64,000 bases of DNA from assembly GCA_965218095.1 (NCBI GenBank), contig OZ244587.1, positions 1,056,001 through 1,120,000 on the forward strand, read 5' to 3'. The DNA is from Candidatus Poribacteria bacterium (GTDB lineage Bacteria; Poribacteria; WGA-4E; PCPOR2b). The translations under genes and the position numbers were made by a program. Shown here piece after piece: positions 26,983 to 45,336 of the stretch. The notes below the pieces were generated by a model, which was not told the DNA's origin, searched no databases, and saw only the letters and a list, made by a program, of their open reading frames with translations. Position 1 is the stretch's first letter; each line of letters starts with the position of its first letter.

Positions 26983-28605
26983 ATGAATATGAATCAACTC
27001 TACTATGGTGACAATCTAGACATTTTGCGAGCCCACATCCCGGATGAAAGCGTCGATCTCATTTACATCGATCCGCCGTTCAACTCGAACCAAGCGTACA
27101 ACGTGATTTTCAGCGAGGCAGATGGCTCATCATCGCAGGCGCAGATTCAAGCCTTTGAGGATACATGGCATTGGGTCGAAACCACTGAGCAGGCATATTA
27201 TGAGCTGGTCGAGACCGCGCCACCCCTTCTGGTTGAGACAATCAAGAGTTTTCGCGGAATCCTCGGTGAAAACAATCTGATGGCGTACCTCGTGATGATG
27301 GGGTTGCGATTGGTGGAACTCCACCGCGTCCTGAAACCGACAGGGAGCTTTTATCTCCATTGTGACCCGACAGCATCGCACTATCTGAAGATTATCTTAG
27401 ATCAGGTTTTTGGCGTTGAGAATTTCAGAAACGAGGTAATTTGGAAACGTTTTAACTTTCACGCAGATGCAAAGCGTTACGGACGTATAACAGACAGATT
27501 GTTGTTTTATACACGGAGTGGTGATTTTTGCTGGAATCAACCTCGTATGCCCTTTTCAGAGGACTATGTTCGCTCGAAATTTACTCATAAAGATGAGCGA
27601 GGTGTTTTCCGATTAAGTGATTTGAACCCGCCCGGTGGTCGTGGTCCAGTCTATGAGTTTCGTGGCGTTACTCGTCCATGGCGTTATACTGAAGAAAAAA
27701 TGAAGGAGCTCGATAAGCAGGGACGCATATATTGTGCAAGGAGTGGCGATATTCCGCAGCTTAAAAGATATTTAGATGAACTTGATGGGCAAGCCGTTCC
27801 GGAATTATGGCAGGATATACCACCAATAAACCCGATGGCTAAAGAGCGTCTCGGCTATCCGACCCAAAAACCTGAAGCATTGCTTGAGCGAATTATCAAA
27901 GCGAGTAGCAACGAAGGCGATGTTGTATTGGACGCCTTCTGTGGTTGTGGGACAGCTGTCGCTGTTGCGCAACGGCTTAACCGCCGGTGGATTGGGGTTG
28001 ACATCACACATCTTGCCATTGCCTTATTGAAATATCGTCTTGCTGATGCCTTCGGTGATGATGTGAAATATGAAGTTATCGGTGAGCCGAAAGATGCGGA
28101 GAGCGCGAAGGCTTTAGCGGTTCAGGATCGGTATCAATTCCAGTGGTGGGCGTTAAGTCTGATTCGGGCGAGACCTTATCAGGAGAAAAAGAAGGGCGCA
28201 GACGAAGGTGTGGACGGGATGATCTATTATCAGGATGTTGACCCGGACAACCCAAAAAAGATGTTGACTCGGAAGATTGTCGTTCAGGTCAAAAGTGGGA
28301 AGGTCTCTGTCAAGGACATACGAGAACTGAAATCGGTTGTCGACAGCCAAGACGCTGTAATCGGTGTCTTTATCACGCTGAACCCGCCGACCCAACCGAT
28401 GGTTAAAGAAGCGGCTACGGCGGGTCGTTTTCAATGGCTTCACGTCAACCACACGATATATCCAAAAATTCAGATTCGGACGATTGAGGAACTGCTTGCG
28501 GGACACGGTATTGAATATCCACAGACGCCTATTGATATCACGTTCCGCAGGGCAGAGCGAGCAGCCCTCCAAAGCCAGCAACTTGAAATAGAGGTTAACC
28601 AATGA
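26983..28605 (+). CDS. Beta-class N6/N4 DNA methyltransferase with C-terminal Mrr-like endonuclease domain
   Basis: DPPF, YPTQKP and FCGCGT motifs; C-terminal D.GVDG...VQVKSG. Confidence 0.88.
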
Positions 28606-36852: not shown

Positions 36853-37021
36853 TCGATGAAAACAGAAACGCCCCTATTACGCATTACGCAGCACATTGAG
36901 ATCAGATCTTTTTCTTGAAACTCCCCGACATCTGTGTTACAATCTGAATTTCCTGAAATCACAAGTTGTGCGAATTACTCAATGGATATTATCACCCAAC
37001 ACATTGATGAGCGACACTGTT

Positions 37022-38494
37022 ATGAGAAATTCGAGAAAAGCGTTACTGCGCTTCACAGCTTTGGGGCTTCTCCCGTTCTGCATAACAACTGCGGCATCTG
37101 CCCAGACTGCCGAGCAGATTGCGGAGCGAGCGTTAGCGGCTACAGCGTATTTAGAGATGACTGATAGGAACGGCAAAACTCTTGGATTTGGCAGCGGCTT
37201 CGTCGTTGACCAGAGCCAGATTGCAACCAACTTCCACGTTATCGAAGGAGCGGCAAAAGGAACTGCAAAGCTGGTTGGCAAAACCACGAAATATACTATC
37301 GAAGGCATATCCGCAATTGATGAGAAAAATGACCTCGCCATCCTAAAGGTCAAGGGATTTGGGGGTGAACCACTCCCCCTTGGCGACAGCGATACGGTTA
37401 AAATTGACCAAACGGTTTACGTCGCAGGCAATCCGAAAGGATTGGAAGGTACGTTTTCAGATGGCATCATCAGTGACCTCGTCGCCCCAAAGTTCTATAT
37501 GATTCCAGAACAATCCTACATAATAACTGCGCCCATTTCTCCGGGGGGTAATGGGGGGGCCGTGCTAAACGGAAGCGGCGAAGTCATAGGTGTTTCTTTG
37601 CGGTTCACTATATACATGCACACGTACACGTTGGCCATTCCTTCAAATTATCTCAAGGAGTTACTCGCTTGGTCAGGGGAGACAAAACCTTTGTCACAGG
37701 ACGAACAATCCATATCCACCAAAACCCATTTTATTAGAGGTTGTGTAAACAACGAGCTAGGTAACTATAATGAAGCCGTTGCAGCCTATACACAGGCAAT
37801 CTGTCTCGGCTTTGATTATGACTTTGTCTACACCGGGCGGGGAAAAGCGAAGGATAAATTAGGACAATACTTCACCGCTATCACCGATTATGATACTGCT
37901 ATACGACTCAGACCCAATTTTGGCTATGCTTATCTCAGGCGGGGTAGCGCGAAGGCTGCATTAAAACAATACTTCACCGCTATCACCGATTACGATACCG
38001 TTATACGACTTAACCCGGATTCTACCCTAGCTGTCACGGCTTACATCAAGCGGGGACAGGCGAAGGATAGCTTAGGACAATACTTCACCGCTATCACCGA
38101 TTATGATACTGCTATACGACTCAGACCCAATTCTGACTATGCTTATCTCAATCGGGGTAATGCGAAGGCTGCATTAAAACAACACGCCGCCGCCATCGAA
38201 GACTACGACAAGGCAATCCAGCTTGAACCCGATGATGCCTCTGCCTACATCAATCGGGGAAGATTGAAGGCTATTTTAGAACAATACCTCGCTGCCATCG
38301 CAGACTGTGACAAGGCAATCCAACTTGAACCGAATAATGCCAGAGCTTATTGCATTCGGGGAATTACAAAGGATCTACTGGGGCACACTTGGGAAGGGAA
38401 GCAAGATCTCCGAACTGCATTGCAGCTTGCGAAACAGGCCGGCGATGAGGGTCTCAAAGATGAAATCGAGAAAATGCTTAAGATGTTCGACTAG
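37022..38494 (+). CDS. Exported trypsin-like domain + TPR repeat protein (catalytic Ser apparently lost)
   Basis: Signal peptide, GSGF, TNFHV, NDLAIL, ISPGGNGG, then about six TPRs. Confidence 0.85.
   Translation: MRNSRKALLRFTALGLLPFCITTAASAQTAEQIAERALAATAYLEMTDRNGKTLGFGSGFVVDQSQIATNFHVIEGAAKGTAKLVGKTTKYTIEGISAIDEKNDLAILKVKGFGGEPLPLGDSDTVKIDQTVYVAGNPKGLEGTFSDGIISDLVAPKFYMIPEQSYIITAPISPGGNGGAVLNGSGEVIGVSLRFTIYMHTYTLAIPSNYLKELLAWSGETKPLSQDEQSISTKTHFIRGCVNNELGNYNEAVAAYTQAICLGFDYDFVYTGRGKAKDKLGQYFTAITDYDTAIRLRPNFGYAYLRRGSAKAALKQYFTAITDYDTVIRLNPDSTLAVTAYIKRGQAKDSLGQYFTAITDYDTAIRLRPNSDYAYLNRGNAKAALKQHAAAIEDYDKAIQLEPDDASAYINRGRLKAILEQYLAAIADCDKAIQLEPNNARAYCIRGITKDLLGHTWEGKQDLRTALQLAKQAGDEGLKDEIEKMLKMFD
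37860..38181 (+). repeat. Near-identical internal TPR duplication (213-bp offset)
   Basis: AGGACAATACTTCACCGCTATCACCGATTATGATACTGC...GCATTAAAACAA at 37861 and 38074. Confidence 0.85.
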
Positions 38495-38630
38495 ATTCTG
38501 TTGACATTTGACGAATTGAACCATTACTGATGCACCTTGCAGTGATTTCGGACAACTGCCCCGGTTTTTGGTGGGGCACCCGATGATTACAGCGTTTCCC
38601 GAATTCGTGACAGCAAATGTCAACACGCCC
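38494..38630. mobile_element. MITE with IS5-type ends
   Basis: CTA-GATTCTGTTGACATTTG ... CAAATGTCAACACGCCC-TAG; same end motif and CTAG context as the IS5 copies. Confidence 0.85.
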
Positions 38631-38735
38631 TAGCAAGATCTGAAACATAGGGAAGTTTCCCGGAGGTTCTGTGCTTAAAATTCAGTTGTTTTTCGGGGTG
38701 AAATTGGGATCGAGATTTGTTACAGAACAGGTAAT

Positions 38736-40259
38736 ATGAGTAATCAAGTTCCAGACAAAAATTATGTTTATAGTGCTTTATTGCGCTACAATTACCTACC
38801 TATCGGCAAAGTACGCCCGGACGAGATACCGTCCAAAATCTTTTCTACCGAAGATTTCACGCCCAAAGTAGCTGATGAAATGCTTAAACAATATGGAGGA
38901 AAGCTAAAAAAGAAAGGATATGATCAGATAGAATACCGTGCAACTCGTTTTAATAAAGTGACGCGGCTTATGCATATTCCGCATCCACTGCCCTATGCGC
39001 GCTTATGCAAATGCCTATCAGACAACTGGGATAAACTCTCACATATATGTGAAAATCCCAACAGCGGCTTGAAGCCTGCGCGACATGATAATGGCAAACT
39101 GATAATGAGGAATTATGAACATATAGAGGACGAACAATTCCCAGGACTAAGGTTACGATTAGAGATTTCGACGGGTAAATTTTACCGGGTTGAAGCGGAT
39201 ATTTCATCATTTTTTCCTTCCATTTATACGCATTCAATCCCATGGGCACTCGTTGGACAACAGAAAGCAAAATCAAATTGGAATCCCAACGAATGGTATA
39301 ATAAGCTTGATAAAGTACAGCAAAACTTAAAAAGAAAAGAAACACGAGGAATACCTATTGGGCCGGCTACTTCAAATATTATATCCGAACTTATCCTATA
39401 CGAAGTTGATAAAGTATTACGTAAAAAGAACTATCAGTTTACGCGATATATTGATGATTATGAATGCTATTGCGAAACCCGGGAACAAGCAGAAAACTTT
39501 ATCCCGGACCTTGAGCGGGAATTACGGAAGTATCTCTTAGATCTTAACGCGGGGAAAGTGCGGACTGAGGAGTTACCTCTCGGGTTTCAAGCACAATGGG
39601 TGATTGCTTTGAGAAATCCTTTACCCTCTAAAAAGAAGCCCTCCCTTTGGGATATTATGAGTTTTCTGGATTCTGCAGTTGATTTACAAAAGCGTTATCC
39701 TGAAGGAAGTGTCTTGAAATATGCTGCACGTACGCTTGCTAACTCCAAGAAAAAGGAATTTGATAAAAACAGTGCTAGTTTTTTTCTGGAATACCTCATC
39801 GCGATAGCGGTTCACACGCCTAGCGTACTTCCAATTCTTTGCCAAGTAGCAAAGGAACATAACGTGGGTTCAAAATTGACAATTGAACCTGTTCTGAAGC
39901 AATCTATTAAGTTCCGGCGTTCTGATGCTATTTGTTGGTGTTTGTACTTCATGGGAATCTGCGGCCTAGCAGTTAGTGACAAACTTGCTACAGCTATCAT
40001 TGAGACGGAAGATTGTATGTCAATGGGGATGCTCATCGCCTTAAACCAACATCAAGAAAAGGTCTTTGATTTTCTTGGATACAAATTTAACTCCGCATCA
40101 AAATCAAAATATGACTATGACTATGACCAGTACTGGATTCTGATTCATGAATTAGCTCCAGACTGTCCCCAATTCAACCGTTACCGTGGAGAATCTGGAT
40201 TAAAATTTCTCAGAAAAAAGAATGTCCATTTTATAAAGCCGATAAATACAGAGACCTAA
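38736..40259 (+). CDS. Defense-associated reverse transcriptase, DRT4 (UG15/AbiA-class)-like
   Basis: ALLRYNY.P, YDQIEY.ATR.N, ADIS.FF.SIYTHSIPWA, ET.GIPIGPATS, RYIDDY, GSVLKYA and SDA..W.LYF motifs, then a helical C-terminal domain. AT-rich. Confidence 0.85.
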   Translation: MSNQVPDKNYVYSALLRYNYLPIGKVRPDEIPSKIFSTEDFTPKVADEMLKQYGGKLKKKGYDQIEYRATRFNKVTRLMHIPHPLPYARLCKCLSDNWDKLSHICENPNSGLKPARHDNGKLIMRNYEHIEDEQFPGLRLRLEISTGKFYRVEADISSFFPSIYTHSIPWALVGQQKAKSNWNPNEWYNKLDKVQQNLKRKETRGIPIGPATSNIISELILYEVDKVLRKKNYQFTRYIDDYECYCETREQAENFIPDLERELRKYLLDLNAGKVRTEELPLGFQAQWVIALRNPLPSKKKPSLWDIMSFLDSAVDLQKRYPEGSVLKYAARTLANSKKKEFDKNSASFFLEYLIAIAVHTPSVLPILCQVAKEHNVGSKLTIEPVLKQSIKFRRSDAICWCLYFMGICGLAVSDKLATAIIETEDCMSMGMLIALNQHQEKVFDFLGYKFNSASKSKYDYDYDQYWILIHELAPDCPQFNRYRGESGLKFLRKKNVHFIKPINTET

Positions 40260-40315
40260 GGTCTGAAGTTCGCTTCATATGACGAGGATATAGAAATTCT
40301 GAGGATAACTACATA

Positions 40316-41578
40316 ATGAACAGATCACTGAGTGAAGTTGACCCACAGATTGTCCAGATTATGCTTCAAGATCTGGACCGGCTGCAAAATTGCCTGACAT
40401 TGATTCCTTCGGAAAATTATGTGAGTAAAGCGGTCATGCAGATGCAGGCGAGTGTTCTTACCAGTAAATACGCCGAAGGCACTCCTGGTGCTCGTTATTA
40501 CAACGGCTGTGCATTCGTAGACGGAGTGGAAAGCCTCGCAATCGATCGTGCGAAGCGGCTTTTCGGCGTTGAGCATGTCAACGTGCAGCCGCACGCCGGG
40601 AATTTAGCCAATATGGCAGCTTACCATGCGCTGCTTGAGCCGGGCGATACGATTCTGTCAATGAGACTCGATCACGGCGGTCATCTGAGTCATGGGCTTC
40701 CCCAGAATTTCTCAGGTAAATATTACAACGTCGTCCCTTACGGTGTTGACACGGAAACAGAGCGGATTAACATAAGTGCGATAGCCGAACTTGCGAAAGT
40801 GCACCAGCCCAAGCTAATTATCGTTGGCGGTAGTGCTTACCCACGCTGGTTCAATTTTTCGCAGTGGCGAGAAGTTGCAGATTCTGTTGGTGCATATCTC
40901 ATGGCGGACATCGCTCATATTGCGGGACTTATTGCCGCAGATGCGCATCCGGATCCGGCGGCTTACTGTGATGTAATCACCACAACGACTCACAAGACCC
41001 TGCGTGGTCCGCGTGGAGGGATCATCATGTCCAGAAATCAACTCGCTGAAGCAATTGATCGGGCGGTATTTCCGGGTATACAGGGCGGTCCCTTCATGCA
41101 CACCATTGCGGCGAAAGCGGTTGCCTTCAAAGAAGCCATGGAGCCAGCCTTCAGGGAATACCAAAGACAGGTCGTGAAAAACGCCAAGGCCCTTGCCAAA
41201 GCACTCTCCGAAAATGGATTTCGCCTAGTAAGCGGCGGCACGGACAACCACCTCATGCTGATCGATTTGACCGCGACATACAAGCAGTTGAGTGGGCGGC
41301 AAGCCGCAGACTACCTTGAGGGGGCAGGGATTATTGTCAACAAGAATACCATCCCGTTTGATAAACGGTCTGCGACCACAACGAGTGGGATTCGACTTGG
41401 CACGCCAATGGTGACAGCACGCGGAATGAAAGAGGCAGAGATGAAGTCGATTGCTGATTTCATTAGCGAAGTCCTCCAGGAACGAAGAAACAAAAAAGCC
41501 AAACAGCGCTTTAGAGAAAAAGTTCAGGAACTGTGTCAGCAATTTCCAATCTATGAAGATCTGAATCTGTGGACATGA
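40316..41578 (+). CDS. glyA: Serine hydroxymethyltransferase
   Basis: LIPSENY, GGHLSHG and [13 protein letters not shown] motifs. Confidence 0.97.
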
Positions 41579-41584
41579 ATCACG

Positions 41585-42916
41585 TTGAATTACGAATCCG
41601 CTCTCGCCTATATTAACACATTCATCAACTTTGAGAAAAGTCCCGATTTCTCCCGACAGGCACGCCTCTATAATCTCAATCGCATCTCTCTCCTTTTAGA
41701 GCGCCTTGGAAATCCACATCGCAATTTGACGGTTATCCATATCGCTGGCAGCAAGGGGAAGGGGTCAACAGCAGCACTTATCGCTTCGATACTCACCCAC
41801 GGAGGCTACAGGACCGGCTTGTTTTCACAGCCGCACCTGATTACTCCCCGTGAACGTTGTCGCATTGACTCGCGGCTGATTTCAGAGAAGGCCTTCGCGC
41901 ATTATATCGATCGGATGAAACCGTCGATCGAGACTGTGGCAGGGATGGAAGCGATTGGGCCCATCTCCTTCTTTGAGATTTATACAGCCCTTGCCTTCTA
42001 CTATTTTGCAGACAATGCGGTTGATTTTGCGGTTGTTGAAGTGGGACTTGGCGGGCGGCTGGATGCGACAAATGTTGTCCATCCGCTTGTGAGCGTTATC
42101 ACGCCGATTAGCCTGGAGCACACAGCGGTGCTTGGAAATACACGCGGAAAGATCGCGAAGGAAAAGGCCGAGATCATTAAAACCGGCCGCCCGCTTGTGT
42201 TAGCCCCACAAGCCCCTGGAGCGCAAGCCGTGCTTGAAAGGGTCGCCGCAGACCGGGACGCCCCGATCGATCAGGTCGGACGCGGCATCTACCTGAAACG
42301 TAAAATCTGGAATATCGGTGGGCAGACGTTTGACCTCAACACACAGCAAACGTCATATCCAGACCTTTTTTTACCGTTGCTCGGTGAACATCAGGCGATT
42401 AACGCAGCGACTGCGATTGCTTGCATTGAGCGCATTCGTAAGGAAGGATATTCGATTCCCAGGACGAGTATCTACAACGGGCTGAAGGAGATTCGTTGGC
42501 CCGGACGCATGCAAGTCGTGGGGCGCTTGCCGATTATGTTGCTGGATGGAGCCCACTCGCCGACTTCGGCGAAGGTGTTGTGCAAGGCCATCCGTGAAAC
42601 CTTTCGTTACCGACGTTTGATTTTTGTCGTGGCGCTGATGCGGGACAAAGCCCTGAAAGCCATCGGCCGGGTGTTCTGTCCATTTGCCGATGAAATCATT
42701 ACAACACAGGCGTTTGATAACCCTCGCGTTATCCCGGCTGAGGAGATCGCGCAGGCGTGGTTAGATTTCGGAGTAGCTCTTCATGTTTGCCCCACAGTCC
42801 CTGAGGCAATACAGTTCGCGCAATCCATTGCCACACCTGCGGATATGATCTGTATCGCGGGCTCCATCTATCTCGTCGGAGAAACGATGAAGGTACTTGG
42901 TATATGTGAAACGTAA
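41585..42916 (+). CDS. folC: Folylpolyglutamate synthase / dihydrofolate synthase
   Basis: HIAGSKGKGS, EVGLGGRLDATN, WPGR and DGAH motifs; TTG start. Confidence 0.93.
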   Translation: MNYESALAYINTFINFEKSPDFSRQARLYNLNRISLLLERLGNPHRNLTVIHIAGSKGKGSTAALIASILTHGGYRTGLFSQPHLITPRERCRIDSRLISEKAFAHYIDRMKPSIETVAGMEAIGPISFFEIYTALAFYYFADNAVDFAVVEVGLGGRLDATNVVHPLVSVITPISLEHTAVLGNTRGKIAKEKAEIIKTGRPLVLAPQAPGAQAVLERVAADRDAPIDQVGRGIYLKRKIWNIGGQTFDLNTQQTSYPDLFLPLLGEHQAINAATAIACIERIRKEGYSIPRTSIYNGLKEIRWPGRMQVVGRLPIMLLDGAHSPTSAKVLCKAIRETFRYRRLIFVVALMRDKALKAIGRVFCPFADEIITTQAFDNPRVIPAEEIAQAWLDFGVALHVCPTVPEAIQFAQSIATPADMICIAGSIYLVGETMKVLGICET

Positions 42917-42978: not shown

Positions 42979-45336
42979 ATGATCGAAACAGTTGTCAACT
43001 GGCTCCATGGAAGGAGCCGTAAATGTTTAGTATTTCTCGCTTCATTGGTGGGAGTGGCAGCCACAAATTCTGCCTTCGCACAAACCGAATCTCTCCCTTC
43101 GGTGCCAGCCGCGTGGTGGCTTGCGCCAATTGGCTCATTGTTCGCCTTGGCGTTCGCATTTTTCTTCTACAAATCCGTCATGAAGCAGAGTGAAGGCACA
43201 GAGGTGATGCGTGAGATCGCCCAATCCGTCCGCGAAGGGGCGATGGCTTACCTGAGACAGCAGTATAAAGTGGTGGGGATTGTTTTCGTCGTGCTATGCG
43301 TTATCTTCCTCATCATGGCTTTCGGGTTAAATGCCCAAAACAAGGTTGTTCCTTTTGCGTTTTTGACGGGTGGTTTCTTTTCAGGGCTTTGTGGTTTTCT
43401 TGGCATGAAGACCGCAACCAACGCATCGGCTCGCACGACGAGTGCCGCGATGGAGGGCCTCAACTCCGGTTTGCGAGTTGCCTTTCGCGCCGGTGCTGTG
43501 ATGGGACTGGTAGTTGTTGGCTTCGCTCTTTTAGACATCGCCGGTTGGTTCTTGATCCTTTACTATCTTTTCCCCAAGATTTTCCCAGGCTTTTTGGGCA
43601 CAAACCCACTGCCCCAGATCACCGTGATCATGTTGAGTTTTGGTATGGGTGCCTCCACACAGGCACTCTTTGCGCGTGTCGGGGGTGGCATCTACACGAA
43701 GGCAGCCGATGTCGGTGCCGATCTGGTAGGAAAAGTGGAAGCCGGCATCCCTGAAGATGATCCACGCAACCCTGCCGTGATTGCGGATAATGTCGGCGAT
43801 AATGTTGGCGATGTGGCGGGGATGGGGGCAGACCTGTACGAGTCTTATGCAGGCTCAATTTTGGCGACCGCTGCACTCGGTGTTGCCGCTATCGCCGCCA
43901 AAGAGCATGATAACATTGCGCTACAGTTAAAGTATCTCTCTGCCCCTATGGTCATCGCAGGAATTGGTGTGGTTCTCTCTATTTTGGGAATTTATATGGT
44001 GCGGACTAAAGAAGGTGCCTCAATGAGGCAGTTGATGGGTTCACTCAACCTGGGCATCAACGGGAGTGCGATTGGCATTGCCATCCTGGCGATTCCGGTG
44101 CTACTGTATCTAGACCTCCCGAACAAGTGGCAAATTTGGGGCGCGATTGTGGCGGGTTTGTTAGCTGGGCTGATTATCGGCAAGGTGACCGAAGTGTTTA
44201 CATCCCACGATTATAGCCCAACACAGGGTATCGCCAAGCAGGCTGAAACGGGGCCGGCAACGGTTATCATTGAGGGCATTGCTGTGGGGATGCAGTCCAC
44301 CGCCATTCCTGTGATAACAGTTATTGCGGCTGTTGCAATTAGCTTCTATCTTCCGGGCGGTGCCAAAGATACGCTGATGGGGCTCTACGGGGTTGGCATT
44401 GCCGCCGTTGGAATGCTCGCCACACTCGGTATCACACTCGCCACTGATGCGTATGGGCCCATTGCGGACAACGCCGGCGGAAACGCAGAAATGTCTGAAC
44501 TGGATCCGAGTGTCCGTCAACGTACAGACCAACTCGATTCCCTCGGTAACACCACCGCCGCGACCGGCAAAGGATTCGCCATCGGTTCCGCTGCGCTCAC
44601 CGCGCTTGCACTCCTTGCCGCTTACCTTGAGGAGGTCCGGTATGGGTTAATTCACTTAGCAGACCAACATCAACTCGCCATCCCTGGTGAAGGGATGGTT
44701 GATACCGTCAAGGTCAGCATTGCCCAGTTCATGTCTTATTACAATGTGACCCTGATGAATCCTAAAGTGTTGATTGGTCTGTTTATCGGTGCGGTGATGG
44801 TGTTCTACTTCTGTGCCTTGACGATGAAAGCGGTTGGTCGTGCTGCCGGCGCGATGGTGTTGGAGGTCCGGCGTCAATTCCACGAGCGGCCGGGCATCAT
44901 GGAGCGGACAGAGAAGCCGGACTACGCCCGGTGTGTGGCGATTTCAACAGTCGGTGCGCAGAGAGAGATGATTCTTCCATCGCTGATTGCGATTATTGTC
45001 CCGGTGGTCGTTGGCTTGGTATTTAACGTTGCGGGTGTCCTCGGCTTGCTTGCCGGCGGTTTGGTGACCGGATTCGTGCTGGCGGTGATGATGGCGAATG
45101 CCGGCAGCGCGTGGGACAATGCAAAGAAGTACATTGAGGGCGGGGAATACGGCGGTAAGGGCTCTGACAATCATGCCGCAACGGTTGTCGGCGATACTGT
45201 CGGCGATCCGTTCAAGGATACCTCCGGGCCATCGCTCAACATTTTGATCAAACTGATGTCGATGGTGTCCGTGGTATTCGCAGGATTAATTGCGAAATAC
45301 GGTGCCGTGATCGGTGGCTTGTTGGGGATGGGCTGA
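42979..45336 (+). CDS. hppA: Membrane-bound K+-dependent Na+(/H+)-translocating pyrophosphatase
   Basis: KAADVGADLVGKVE, DNVGDNVGD, GNTTAA and GDTVGDPFKD motifs. Confidence 0.95.
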   Translation: MIETVVNWLHGRSRKCLVFLASLVGVAATNSAFAQTESLPSVPAAWWLAPIGSLFALAFAFFFYKSVMKQSEGTEVMREIAQSVREGAMAYLRQQYKVVGIVFVVLCVIFLIMAFGLNAQNKVVPFAFLTGGFFSGLCGFLGMKTATNASARTTSAAMEGLNSGLRVAFRAGAVMGLVVVGFALLDIAGWFLILYYLFPKIFPGFLGTNPLPQITVIMLSFGMGASTQALFARVGGGIYTKAADVGADLVGKVEAGIPEDDPRNPAVIADNVGDNVGDVAGMGADLYESYAGSILATAALGVAAIAAKEHDNIALQLKYLSAPMVIAGIGVVLSILGIYMVRTKEGASMRQLMGSLNLGINGSAIGIAILAIPVLLYLDLPNKWQIWGAIVAGLLAGLIIGKVTEVFTSHDYSPTQGIAKQAETGPATVIIEGIAVGMQSTAIPVITVIAAVAISFYLPGGAKDTLMGLYGVGIAAVGMLATLGITLATDAYGPIADNAGGNAEMSELDPSVRQRTDQLDSLGNTTAATGKGFAIGSAALTALALLAAYLEEVRYGLIHLADQHQLAIPGEGMVDTVKVSIAQFMSYYNVTLMNPKVLIGLFIGAVMVFYFCALTMKAVGRAAGAMVLEVRRQFHERPGIMERTEKPDYARCVAISTVGAQREMILPSLIAIIVPVVVGLVFNVAGVLGLLAGGLVTGFVLAVMMANAGSAWDNAKKYIEGGEYGGKGSDNHAATVVGDTVGDPFKDTSGPSLNILIKLMSMVSVVFAGLIAKYGAVIGGLLGMG

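Follow-up and report, generated by a model that had tools for sequence, protein, structure and literature searches.

A 64,000-nucleotide stretch of a Candidatus Poribacteria genome (NCBI GenBank assembly GCA_965218095.1, contig OZ244587.1, forward-strand positions 1,056,001 to 1,120,000; henceforth the window) carries at positions 38736–40259, on the forward strand, a gene for a 507-residue reverse transcriptase (RT). Judged by its sequence and its predicted fold, this protein is a full-length member of the DRT4 (UG15) family of class-1 UG/Abi RTs, and not merely a DRT4-like protein as a preliminary description of this DNA had it. By homology with the Escherichia coli enzyme, we put the probability at about 0.87 that it is a working member of this family, which would combine untemplated DNA synthesis with an RNase activity leading to abortive infection. 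The DRT4 family has already been described structurally and mechanistically, and the present gene is an ordinary further example of it rather than a new type of system, leaving existing knowledge of how DRT4 works unchanged. Its main value is one of correct annotation: a gene for which Pfam offers only the label “RVT_1” can be named as DRT4, a defence enzyme, in a lineage that is uncultured and probably sponge-associated. Among the matches listed in a search of titles and abstracts for Poribacteria together with reverse transcriptase and defense, we found no report of DRT4 in Poribacteria.

Family membership and fold

The reading frame is open throughout its 507 codons, from an ATG start to a TAA stop, and its product displays the RT motifs ADIS, GIPIGP and YIDD at residues 154, 205 and 238, respectively. 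Pfam detects only the RVT_1 domain (residues 145–277) in it. The more specific models are those of DRT4: the protein scores 505.3 bits with the NCBIfam Drt4 equivalog (NF041749; cut-off 450) over model positions 2–489 of 489, and 535.9 bits with the PADLOC model Drt4 (PDLC02180), which comes out on top in the PADLOC classification that the preliminary description had proposed as a check. The other NCBIfam RT models remain under their cut-offs (Drt3b, 110.9 bits against 350; the group II RT/maturase model TIGR04416, 56.9 against 300; retron St85, 42.5 against 235), such that the retron or group II intron identity, which the same description had named as contradicting its proposal, was not seen. 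Its statement that there is no maturase, Cas1, VTG motif or partner open reading frame (ORF) is likewise borne out: no Cas1 was found among the window ORFs scanned with Pfam or PADLOC, the 507-residue protein contains no VTG tripeptide, and no same-strand ORF of at least 60 residues lies between the gene and its flanking genes. The window also has no Rfam match to a group II or retron RNA.

A phmmer search against solved structures recovered the DRT4/UG15 chains of E. coli (E 2e-89, residues 7–472), and a profile of 39 homologs covered residues 6–503 of E. coli DRT4 (E 1e-133). An AlphaFold2 model built on the same 39-homolog alignment has a mean predicted local distance difference test score (pLDDT) of 85.5 and a predicted template-modelling score (pTM) of 0.86, with a single low-confidence stretch (residues 127–136). 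In Foldseek comparisons, the top structures were those of UG15/DRT4 (9l9s, 9vdv and 9vdo) with template-modelling (TM) scores of 0.86–0.89 and 34–35% identity, followed by DRT6 (TM 0.80), AbiK (0.71–0.76), Abi-P2 (0.61) and AbiA (0.37). The model has two lobes. The RT fingers and palm occupy residues 1–286 (38736–39593, forward strand), a lobe which includes the RVT_1 domain, aligns with E. coli residues 6–286 and is delimited here as in the bioRxiv preprint 10.64898/2026.10.27.754916. An alpha-Rep lobe follows in place of the thumb (39594–40256, forward strand) and ends near the equivalent of E. coli residue 510; its residues 287–494 are predicted to be all helical, as expected from the helical C-terminal domain noticed earlier.

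The closest known system is the DRT4 of E. coli 21-C8-A (PDB 9vdo, 9vdv, 9l9s and 21ou), which shares with the window protein the two-lobe fold, likewise consists of one gene that has no partner RNA, and whose priming tyrosine, YIDD motif, metal-binding aspartate and RNase histidine and aspartate all have aligned counterparts (see below). The two differ in that they are only 34–35% identical, that the E. coli protein has a C-terminal tail (residues 508–540) along with Q23, N285 and D286, and that the window gene stands among the housekeeping genes of an uncultured lineage. Despite this identity of about 35% to the E. coli enzyme, the protein is not very divergent, contrary to what had been proposed, for it passes the equivalog cut-off and 1517 relatives were found at E ≤ 1e-20 among 8000 candidates scored. 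The homologs P0002–P0005 are 82–88% identical to it at 100% query coverage and are 500–504 residues long.

The earlier label, “AbiA/UG15 (DRT4)-class”, needs to be divided: the curated models, the E-value of 2e-89 and the TM scores of 0.86–0.89 sustain its DRT4/UG15 part, whereas AbiA is a separate class-1 family with a weak fold match (TM 0.37). AbiK, Abi-P2 and AbiA, known from lactococci and phage P2, are reported to carry out protein-primed untemplated DNA synthesis and to join an RT lobe with a helical one in a single protein (bioRxiv 10.64898/2026.10.21.760695 and 10.64898/2026.10.27.754916; henceforth the two preprints), and according to the latter of these the fingers-palm loop of DRT4 is longer than that of the Abi proteins and bears the priming tyrosine. 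Identity of the window protein to this group is 16–17%, and AbiK and Abi-P2 resemble it in fold. The chance that the protein belongs instead to another class-1 family, be it DRT6 (UG12), UG30 or AbiK, appears negligible to us. The PADLOC models of these families also match over the full length (323.7, 213.3 and 154.8 bits, respectively), and DRT6 (PDB 9wy8) combines a class-1 RT lobe with an alpha-Rep lobe in a similar fold; however, Drt6 scores 200 bits under Drt4, identity is 22% to DRT6 as against 34–35% to DRT4, the TM score is 0.80 as against 0.87, and it is the Drt4 equivalog cut-off that is passed.

Active sites and predicted mode of action

E. coli DRT4 is described as the product of a single gene which assembles into a hexamer, a dimer of trimers, and which uses its YIDD motif and D149 to synthesize untemplated, purine-rich single-stranded DNA (ssDNA) of about 50–100 nucleotides; its reported triggers are phage proteins of the single-stranded DNA-binding protein (SSB) type and raised deoxynucleoside triphosphate (dNTP) levels, and the outcome is abortive infection (PMC12783706; the two preprints). 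The priming residue is Tyr125 (PMC12783706), a second site comprising H160 and D192 acts as an RNase, and purine selection is attributed to Q23, N124, N285 and D286 (both according to the two preprints).

To locate the corresponding residues, we used a printed alignment with E. coli DRT4, checked against the translated window protein, and counted conservation in the 39-homolog alignment (A1); all codons given below are on the forward strand. The candidate priming tyrosine is Y127 (39114–39116; E. coli Y125), which stands at the start of the low-confidence stretch 127–136, in a region devoid of helix or strand according to DSSP, with N126 beside it as the equivalent of E. coli N124. D155 (39198–39200) corresponds by alignment to the metal-B ligand D149, and H166 (39231–39233) is the predicted RNase histidine (E. 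coli H160); both are invariant in 39/39 homologs. The predicted RNase aspartate, D192 (39309–39311; D192 also in E. coli), is found in at least 90% of the 39. The catalytic YIDD motif spans residues 238–241 (39447–39458), numbered as in E. coli DRT4, with D240 and D241 invariant in 39/39. Every position that is invariant across the 39 homologs is kept in the window protein. Y127, the metal ligands D155, D240 and D241, and H166 and D192 are each identical to a residue reported as essential in the E. coli enzyme. At the contacts between trimers, the window protein retains E202 and K179, and a third residue, E. coli D466, is probably represented by D464, which we matched manually. Family membership, fold and the conservation of these residues are shown by the sequence and model comparisons. 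For the RNase of DRT4, the papers on the E. coli enzyme cite Rong et al. (Science 2026).

From the homology with the E. coli enzyme we infer polymerase activity, an oligomeric state, RNase activity, a trigger and phage protection for the window DRT4, as follows. The protein would form a hexamer, in which Y127 would receive the first nucleotide (protein priming) and the YIDD/D155 site would extend from it a short, random ssDNA without a template. An infecting phage would act as the trigger, either by raising dNTP levels or by supplying an ssDNA-binding protein that captures the DNA made by DRT4. The H166/D192 site would then switch on as an RNase, stopping both the infected cell and the phage, i.e., abortive infection.

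Two of these positions vary among the homologs. The column of the priming tyrosine, which is reported to be absolutely conserved in 174 DRT4 proteins (PMC12783706), holds W, S or K in four of the 39 rows (P0017, P0022, P0072 and P0088), in a loop that is hard to align. In eight of the 39 (e.g., P0078, P0094 and P0073), LGDD, FGDD or FADD replaces YIDD/YVDD, so that the tyrosine is missing which in the E. coli enzyme stacks on the end of the primer.

Differences from the E. coli enzyme and fitness of the gene

Several observations weigh against a working DRT4 in the window. The counterpart of the E. coli tail 508–540, about 30 residues, is missing: positions 7–500 of the profile correspond to E. 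coli 6–503, and the window protein ends about seven residues past the last conserved motif. In E. coli, deletion of this tail is reported to abolish protection against phage Bas17 and activation by gp44 (an SSB) while leaving DNA synthesis intact (the two preprints). At the hexamer interface, E. coli F140 and H204 are replaced by T146 and R204; among the purine-selecting residues, N124 is kept as N126, whereas Q23, N285 and D286 are replaced by G24, Q285 and A286. Moreover, the evidence for expression of the gene is weak. The RNA data consist of assembled contigs from four RNA-library runs in three studies, which give neither strand nor level and may include DNA carry-over; the contigs covering parts of DRT4 are 85–99% alike and come mostly from relatives. 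Finally, the relatives have often lost or broken the gene (see below), which marks it as dispensable, and the window copy could itself be in the course of being lost.

The short C-terminus is usual in this clade, with fewer than 10 residues following the last conserved motif in 93 of the 120 nearest homologs. The NCBIfam Drt4 model, with its 489 positions, also ends before the tail, which is thus a feature of the E. coli protein and not of the family. Lacking it, the window DRT4 would probably sense infection through its ssDNA product and the dNTP level, or through another surface. With mostly natural “delta-CTD” forms, the clade lends itself to testing whether SSB-tail recognition as modelled for E. 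coli holds generally. The changes in the purine-selecting residues concern the composition of the product and not family membership; none of the 39 homologs has Q in the column of Q23. As the base-selecting residues differ, the composition of the DNA product could differ too.

A few homologs (P0077 and P0115; A1 columns 660–707) have long C-terminal extensions that end in IPF. Among the 120 nearest homologs, two terminate in IPF and five in F. SSB tails of bacteria and phages carry IPF at their tip, raising the possibility of an SSB-tip mimic on DRT4 itself; DRT4 is reported to be activated by phage SSB-like proteins whose tip reads DDIPF (the two preprints).

In view of the losses, the gene might be a relic that is intact by chance, is no longer defensive and is heading for the loss seen in its relatives. 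Two of the five family copies at this locus are damaged, one by a frameshift and one by an internal deletion. In the sister family, two transposase insertions interrupt a copy, the gene has been deleted in most relatives, and an RNA-library contig represents yet another deletion allele, in which the equivalent of position 39039 is joined to that of 40273. Against this, the window frame is open for 507 codons and retains all catalytic and priming residues as well as the invariant positions of the 39 homologs, and P0002–P0005 span the whole query. We therefore consider a relic unlikely and prefer the reading of a functional DRT4.

History of the locus

Drt4 matches at E ≤ 1e-40 are present in 17 of 176 genomes of the phylum, 12 of them above the cut-off, and the whole genome from which the window comes (6.35 Mb, one contig) has a single one. 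To understand how the gene came to its position, we compared the region upstream of glyA in the 29 genomes of the window's family, in all of which glyA was found. In five of them, belonging to three genera, DRT4 lies between glyA and a gene for a trypsin-like peptidase with TPR repeats (peptidase-TPR); the copies of G000, G009 and G012 are intact, that of G008 has a frameshift, and that of G042 has an internal deletion and an additional ORF next to it. The peptidase-TPR gene directly abuts glyA in 12 genomes, a short unrelated insert or gap precedes glyA in four and a different region in five; of the remaining three, one has a glyA match that is far more distant (45% identity) and the others have too little sequence.

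The DRT4-less sites of one genus, g4, bear traces of the gene. The last 35 nucleotides of the DRT4 frame remain in six of its ten aligned DRT4-less sites, where 22–27 of the 35 are identical to the window in ungapped comparison, as against 28–31 in the intact or frameshifted copies. The 56-bp spacer between DRT4 and glyA is likewise preserved, with 40–46 of 56 nucleotides identical in all ten sites, compared with 40 of 49 aligned nucleotides in the DRT4-bearing G009. The remnant and the conserved spacer ahead of glyA together indicate that DRT4 was deleted from those g4 genomes and that these are not virgin sites. We further derived a tree of 14 intact DRT4 copies, leaving out the broken ones (G008, G042, G107 and G152) and one with internal stops (G060), and a tree of peptidase-TPR with 21 rows. 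In both, genera g1 and g4 group with each other, and g5 and the sister family branch off at a greater distance, roughly following taxonomy, an agreement that fits mostly vertical descent with repeated loss.

Beyond the family the arrangement dissolves. In the sister family, peptidase-TPR precedes DRT4 in six of 13 loci, a DUF4377 gene lies downstream, and glyA follows in none of the 13. Neither glyA nor folC nor peptidase-TPR was found at any of 30 metagenome DRT4 loci (32–65% identical), about 20 of which include at least 1 kb of downstream sequence. Adjacency to glyA is hence confined to one family, which speaks for lineage history and gives no evidence of a functional link. On these sequence comparisons, the position of DRT4 between peptidase-TPR and glyA is best described as inherited and not functional. 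The locus documents with unusual clarity how a single-gene defence system was inherited at one fixed position among housekeeping genes and was repeatedly deleted, frameshifted or hit by insertion sequences. We also considered the site before glyA as a defence hotspot and rejected this, since the other inserts found there encode a DDE transposase and an RDD-family protein or are ORFs that match nothing in Pfam or PADLOC.

For genus g5, lateral gain of the locus by recombination may be considered, although local duplication explains the data as well. G012 and G008 have a second peptidase-TPR copy and a 5' fragment of glyA upstream, and their glyA leader is nearer to that of g1 and g4 than to that of their DRT4-less congeners; however, the two g5 peptidase copies group with each other and not with another genus. 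Stray copies of the first 65–91 glyA codons occur in three relatives (L013, 6350–6631; L014, 6907–7188; L049, 6944–7138), either between tandem peptidase-TPR genes or before a 318-residue ORF with no Pfam or PADLOC match, and are scars of duplication or recombination at the locus.

Two further copies in the phylum deserve mention. In a metagenome-assembled genome of Candidatus Poribacteria from the sister family (L002, 4322–7965), DRT4 is in three pieces, separated by two insertion sequences, one with a DDE transposase and the other with a fragment of an IS1595-type zinc-ribbon transposase. The best Drt4 match in the phylum (L053, G060:C103:12538–14007; 536.7 bits) contains two in-frame TAG codons; it could be a pseudogene, or the codons could reflect stop reassignment or an error in the sequence.

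The gene also stands out in its composition, and the preliminary description of an intact, AT-rich 507-residue ORF with ADIS, GIPIGP and YIDD motifs was accurate in its coordinates, motifs and base content. The GC content of the DRT4 gene is 0.396, and 0.368 at third codon positions (GC3), compared with a GC of 0.508 in glyA and of 0.486 over the window as a whole. The relatives' copies have a GC of 0.35–0.42 and a GC3 of 0.29–0.41 despite an apparently long vertical residence, and DRT4 is 4–10 points under its flanks in every genome checked (L012, L013, L056, L058, L059 and L066); family-wide composition, weak expression or exchange among relatives may account for this.

Relationship to the flanking genes

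The conserved upstream neighbour, peptidase-TPR (36896–38494, forward strand; Pfam Trypsin_2 and TPR), probably starts near 37007, as the relatives' matches begin at residue 37. It raises the question of a two-gene system in which DRT4 would act with this peptidase, in the manner of RT-protease retrons. The gene stands directly upstream in 5/5 DRT4 loci of the window's family and 6/13 of the sister family, and its protease domain scores 53 bits with the PADLOC model RT-Protease_XI. In the retron type XI RT-protease system, too, a trypsin-like protease adjoins an RT; here, by contrast, the protease is a separate protein, probably exported and found whether or not the RT is there, and the RT scores 42.5 bits against the retron cut-off of 235. 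We regard the RT-Protease_XI match as a generic trypsin-fold resemblance. Of the 24 family genomes lacking DRT4, at least 16 have peptidase-TPR at this very position, so the peptidase gene does not depend on DRT4, and it was not found in the available flanks of any of the 30 metagenome DRT4 loci. Its N-terminus, judged by eye, resembles a secretion signal, which would place it outside the cytoplasm, and E. coli DRT4 is described as acting alone (PMC12783706). A two-gene system is accordingly very improbable, and no partner gene was found to be conserved across the DRT4 loci of the family relatives, the sister family and the 30 metagenomes.

Downstream, the DRT4 stop codon ends at 40259 and glyA starts at 40316, leaving the 56-bp spacer (40260–40315) that had been noted before. 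On the forward strand glyA (40316–41578; Pfam SHMT, 515 bits) is followed by folC (41585–42916; Mur ligase M and C domains). Transcription of DRT4 might read through into these genes, giving its position a function by coupling defence to folate-dependent nucleotide supply. The three genes are on the same strand, and the spacer has no convincing forward-strand terminator, its only candidate being a five-pair palindrome across the stop codon that was scored on the minus strand. In a relative, a 155-nucleotide RNA-library contig spans the equivalent of 40186–40340, and raised dNTP levels are reported to activate E. coli DRT4 (the two preprints). An assembled contig, however, cannot prove a single transcript, and at least 26 of the 29 family genomes keep folC next to glyA, whether or not they carry DRT4. 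The glyA leader is kept in the DRT4-less genomes, such that glyA probably has its own expression signals, and glyA does not follow DRT4 at any of the 13 sister-family loci or of the 30 metagenome loci, about 20 of which extend at least 1 kb downstream. Co-transcription of DRT4 and glyA is possible, and its functional role in this form is quite unlikely; the functional link to glyA-folC suggested earlier finds no comparative support, as the adjacency is limited to one family and is explained by descent.

A more elaborate version would combine this coupling with the differences from the E. coli enzyme. In it, a tail-less DRT4 would sense only its own ssDNA and dNTP levels, would have long been kept at one housekeeping locus because transcription runs into glyA-folC, and would, through G24, Q285 and A286, make a product differing in composition from the purine-rich DNA of E. 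coli. If true, an abortive-infection switch would be tied to the one-carbon and nucleotide supply of the cell; we give this combination little credence and hold to the inherited position set out above.

Surroundings of the gene

The 241-bp spacer upstream of DRT4 (38495–38735) shows no sign of a non-coding RNA. Its fold z-score is -0.42, and Rfam gave no match to it, either at the gathering score or at E ≤ 1. A non-coding RNA of the kind found upstream of DRT2 and DRT9 was rejected on these grounds, and the lack of a stable fold and of an Rfam match fits a system that needs no RNA. Into this spacer a dispersed repeat, about 145 bp long, has been inserted (38491–38633), with perfect 12-nucleotide terminal inverted repeats at 38499–38510 and 38614–38625, the insertion of which explains why the spacer is longer than the 66–119 bp seen in relatives. 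The repeat has 25 matches in the genome at 72–92% identity (316 candidates in a first look) and resembles a miniature inverted-repeat element; contigs from the RNA libraries accumulate over it and break off at its ends. A minus-strand frame of 83 codons with a GTG start (38375–38626), which covers the end of peptidase-TPR together with part of this spacer, is read as spurious.

The wider neighbourhood is one of housekeeping genes, including carA, carB, a family-3 glycosyltransferase-like gene, glyA, folC, a proton pyrophosphatase gene that starts at 42979 after folC, accC, comB and nadA. The window has 49 other non-overlapping ORFs of at least 110 residues, and 41 of these were scanned with PADLOC for defence functions. 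A single clear defence-type protein was found among the 41, in keeping with the earlier placement of DRT4 outside a defence island; the others gave merely generic helicase, protease-domain or repeat hits. This protein, encoded about 10 kb upstream of DRT4 (26983–28605), is a 540-residue fusion of an N6/N4 DNA methylase with an Mrr-type nuclease domain, whose stop codon overlaps the start of carA, and may be a single-chain restriction-modification enzyme beside pyrimidine synthesis genes.

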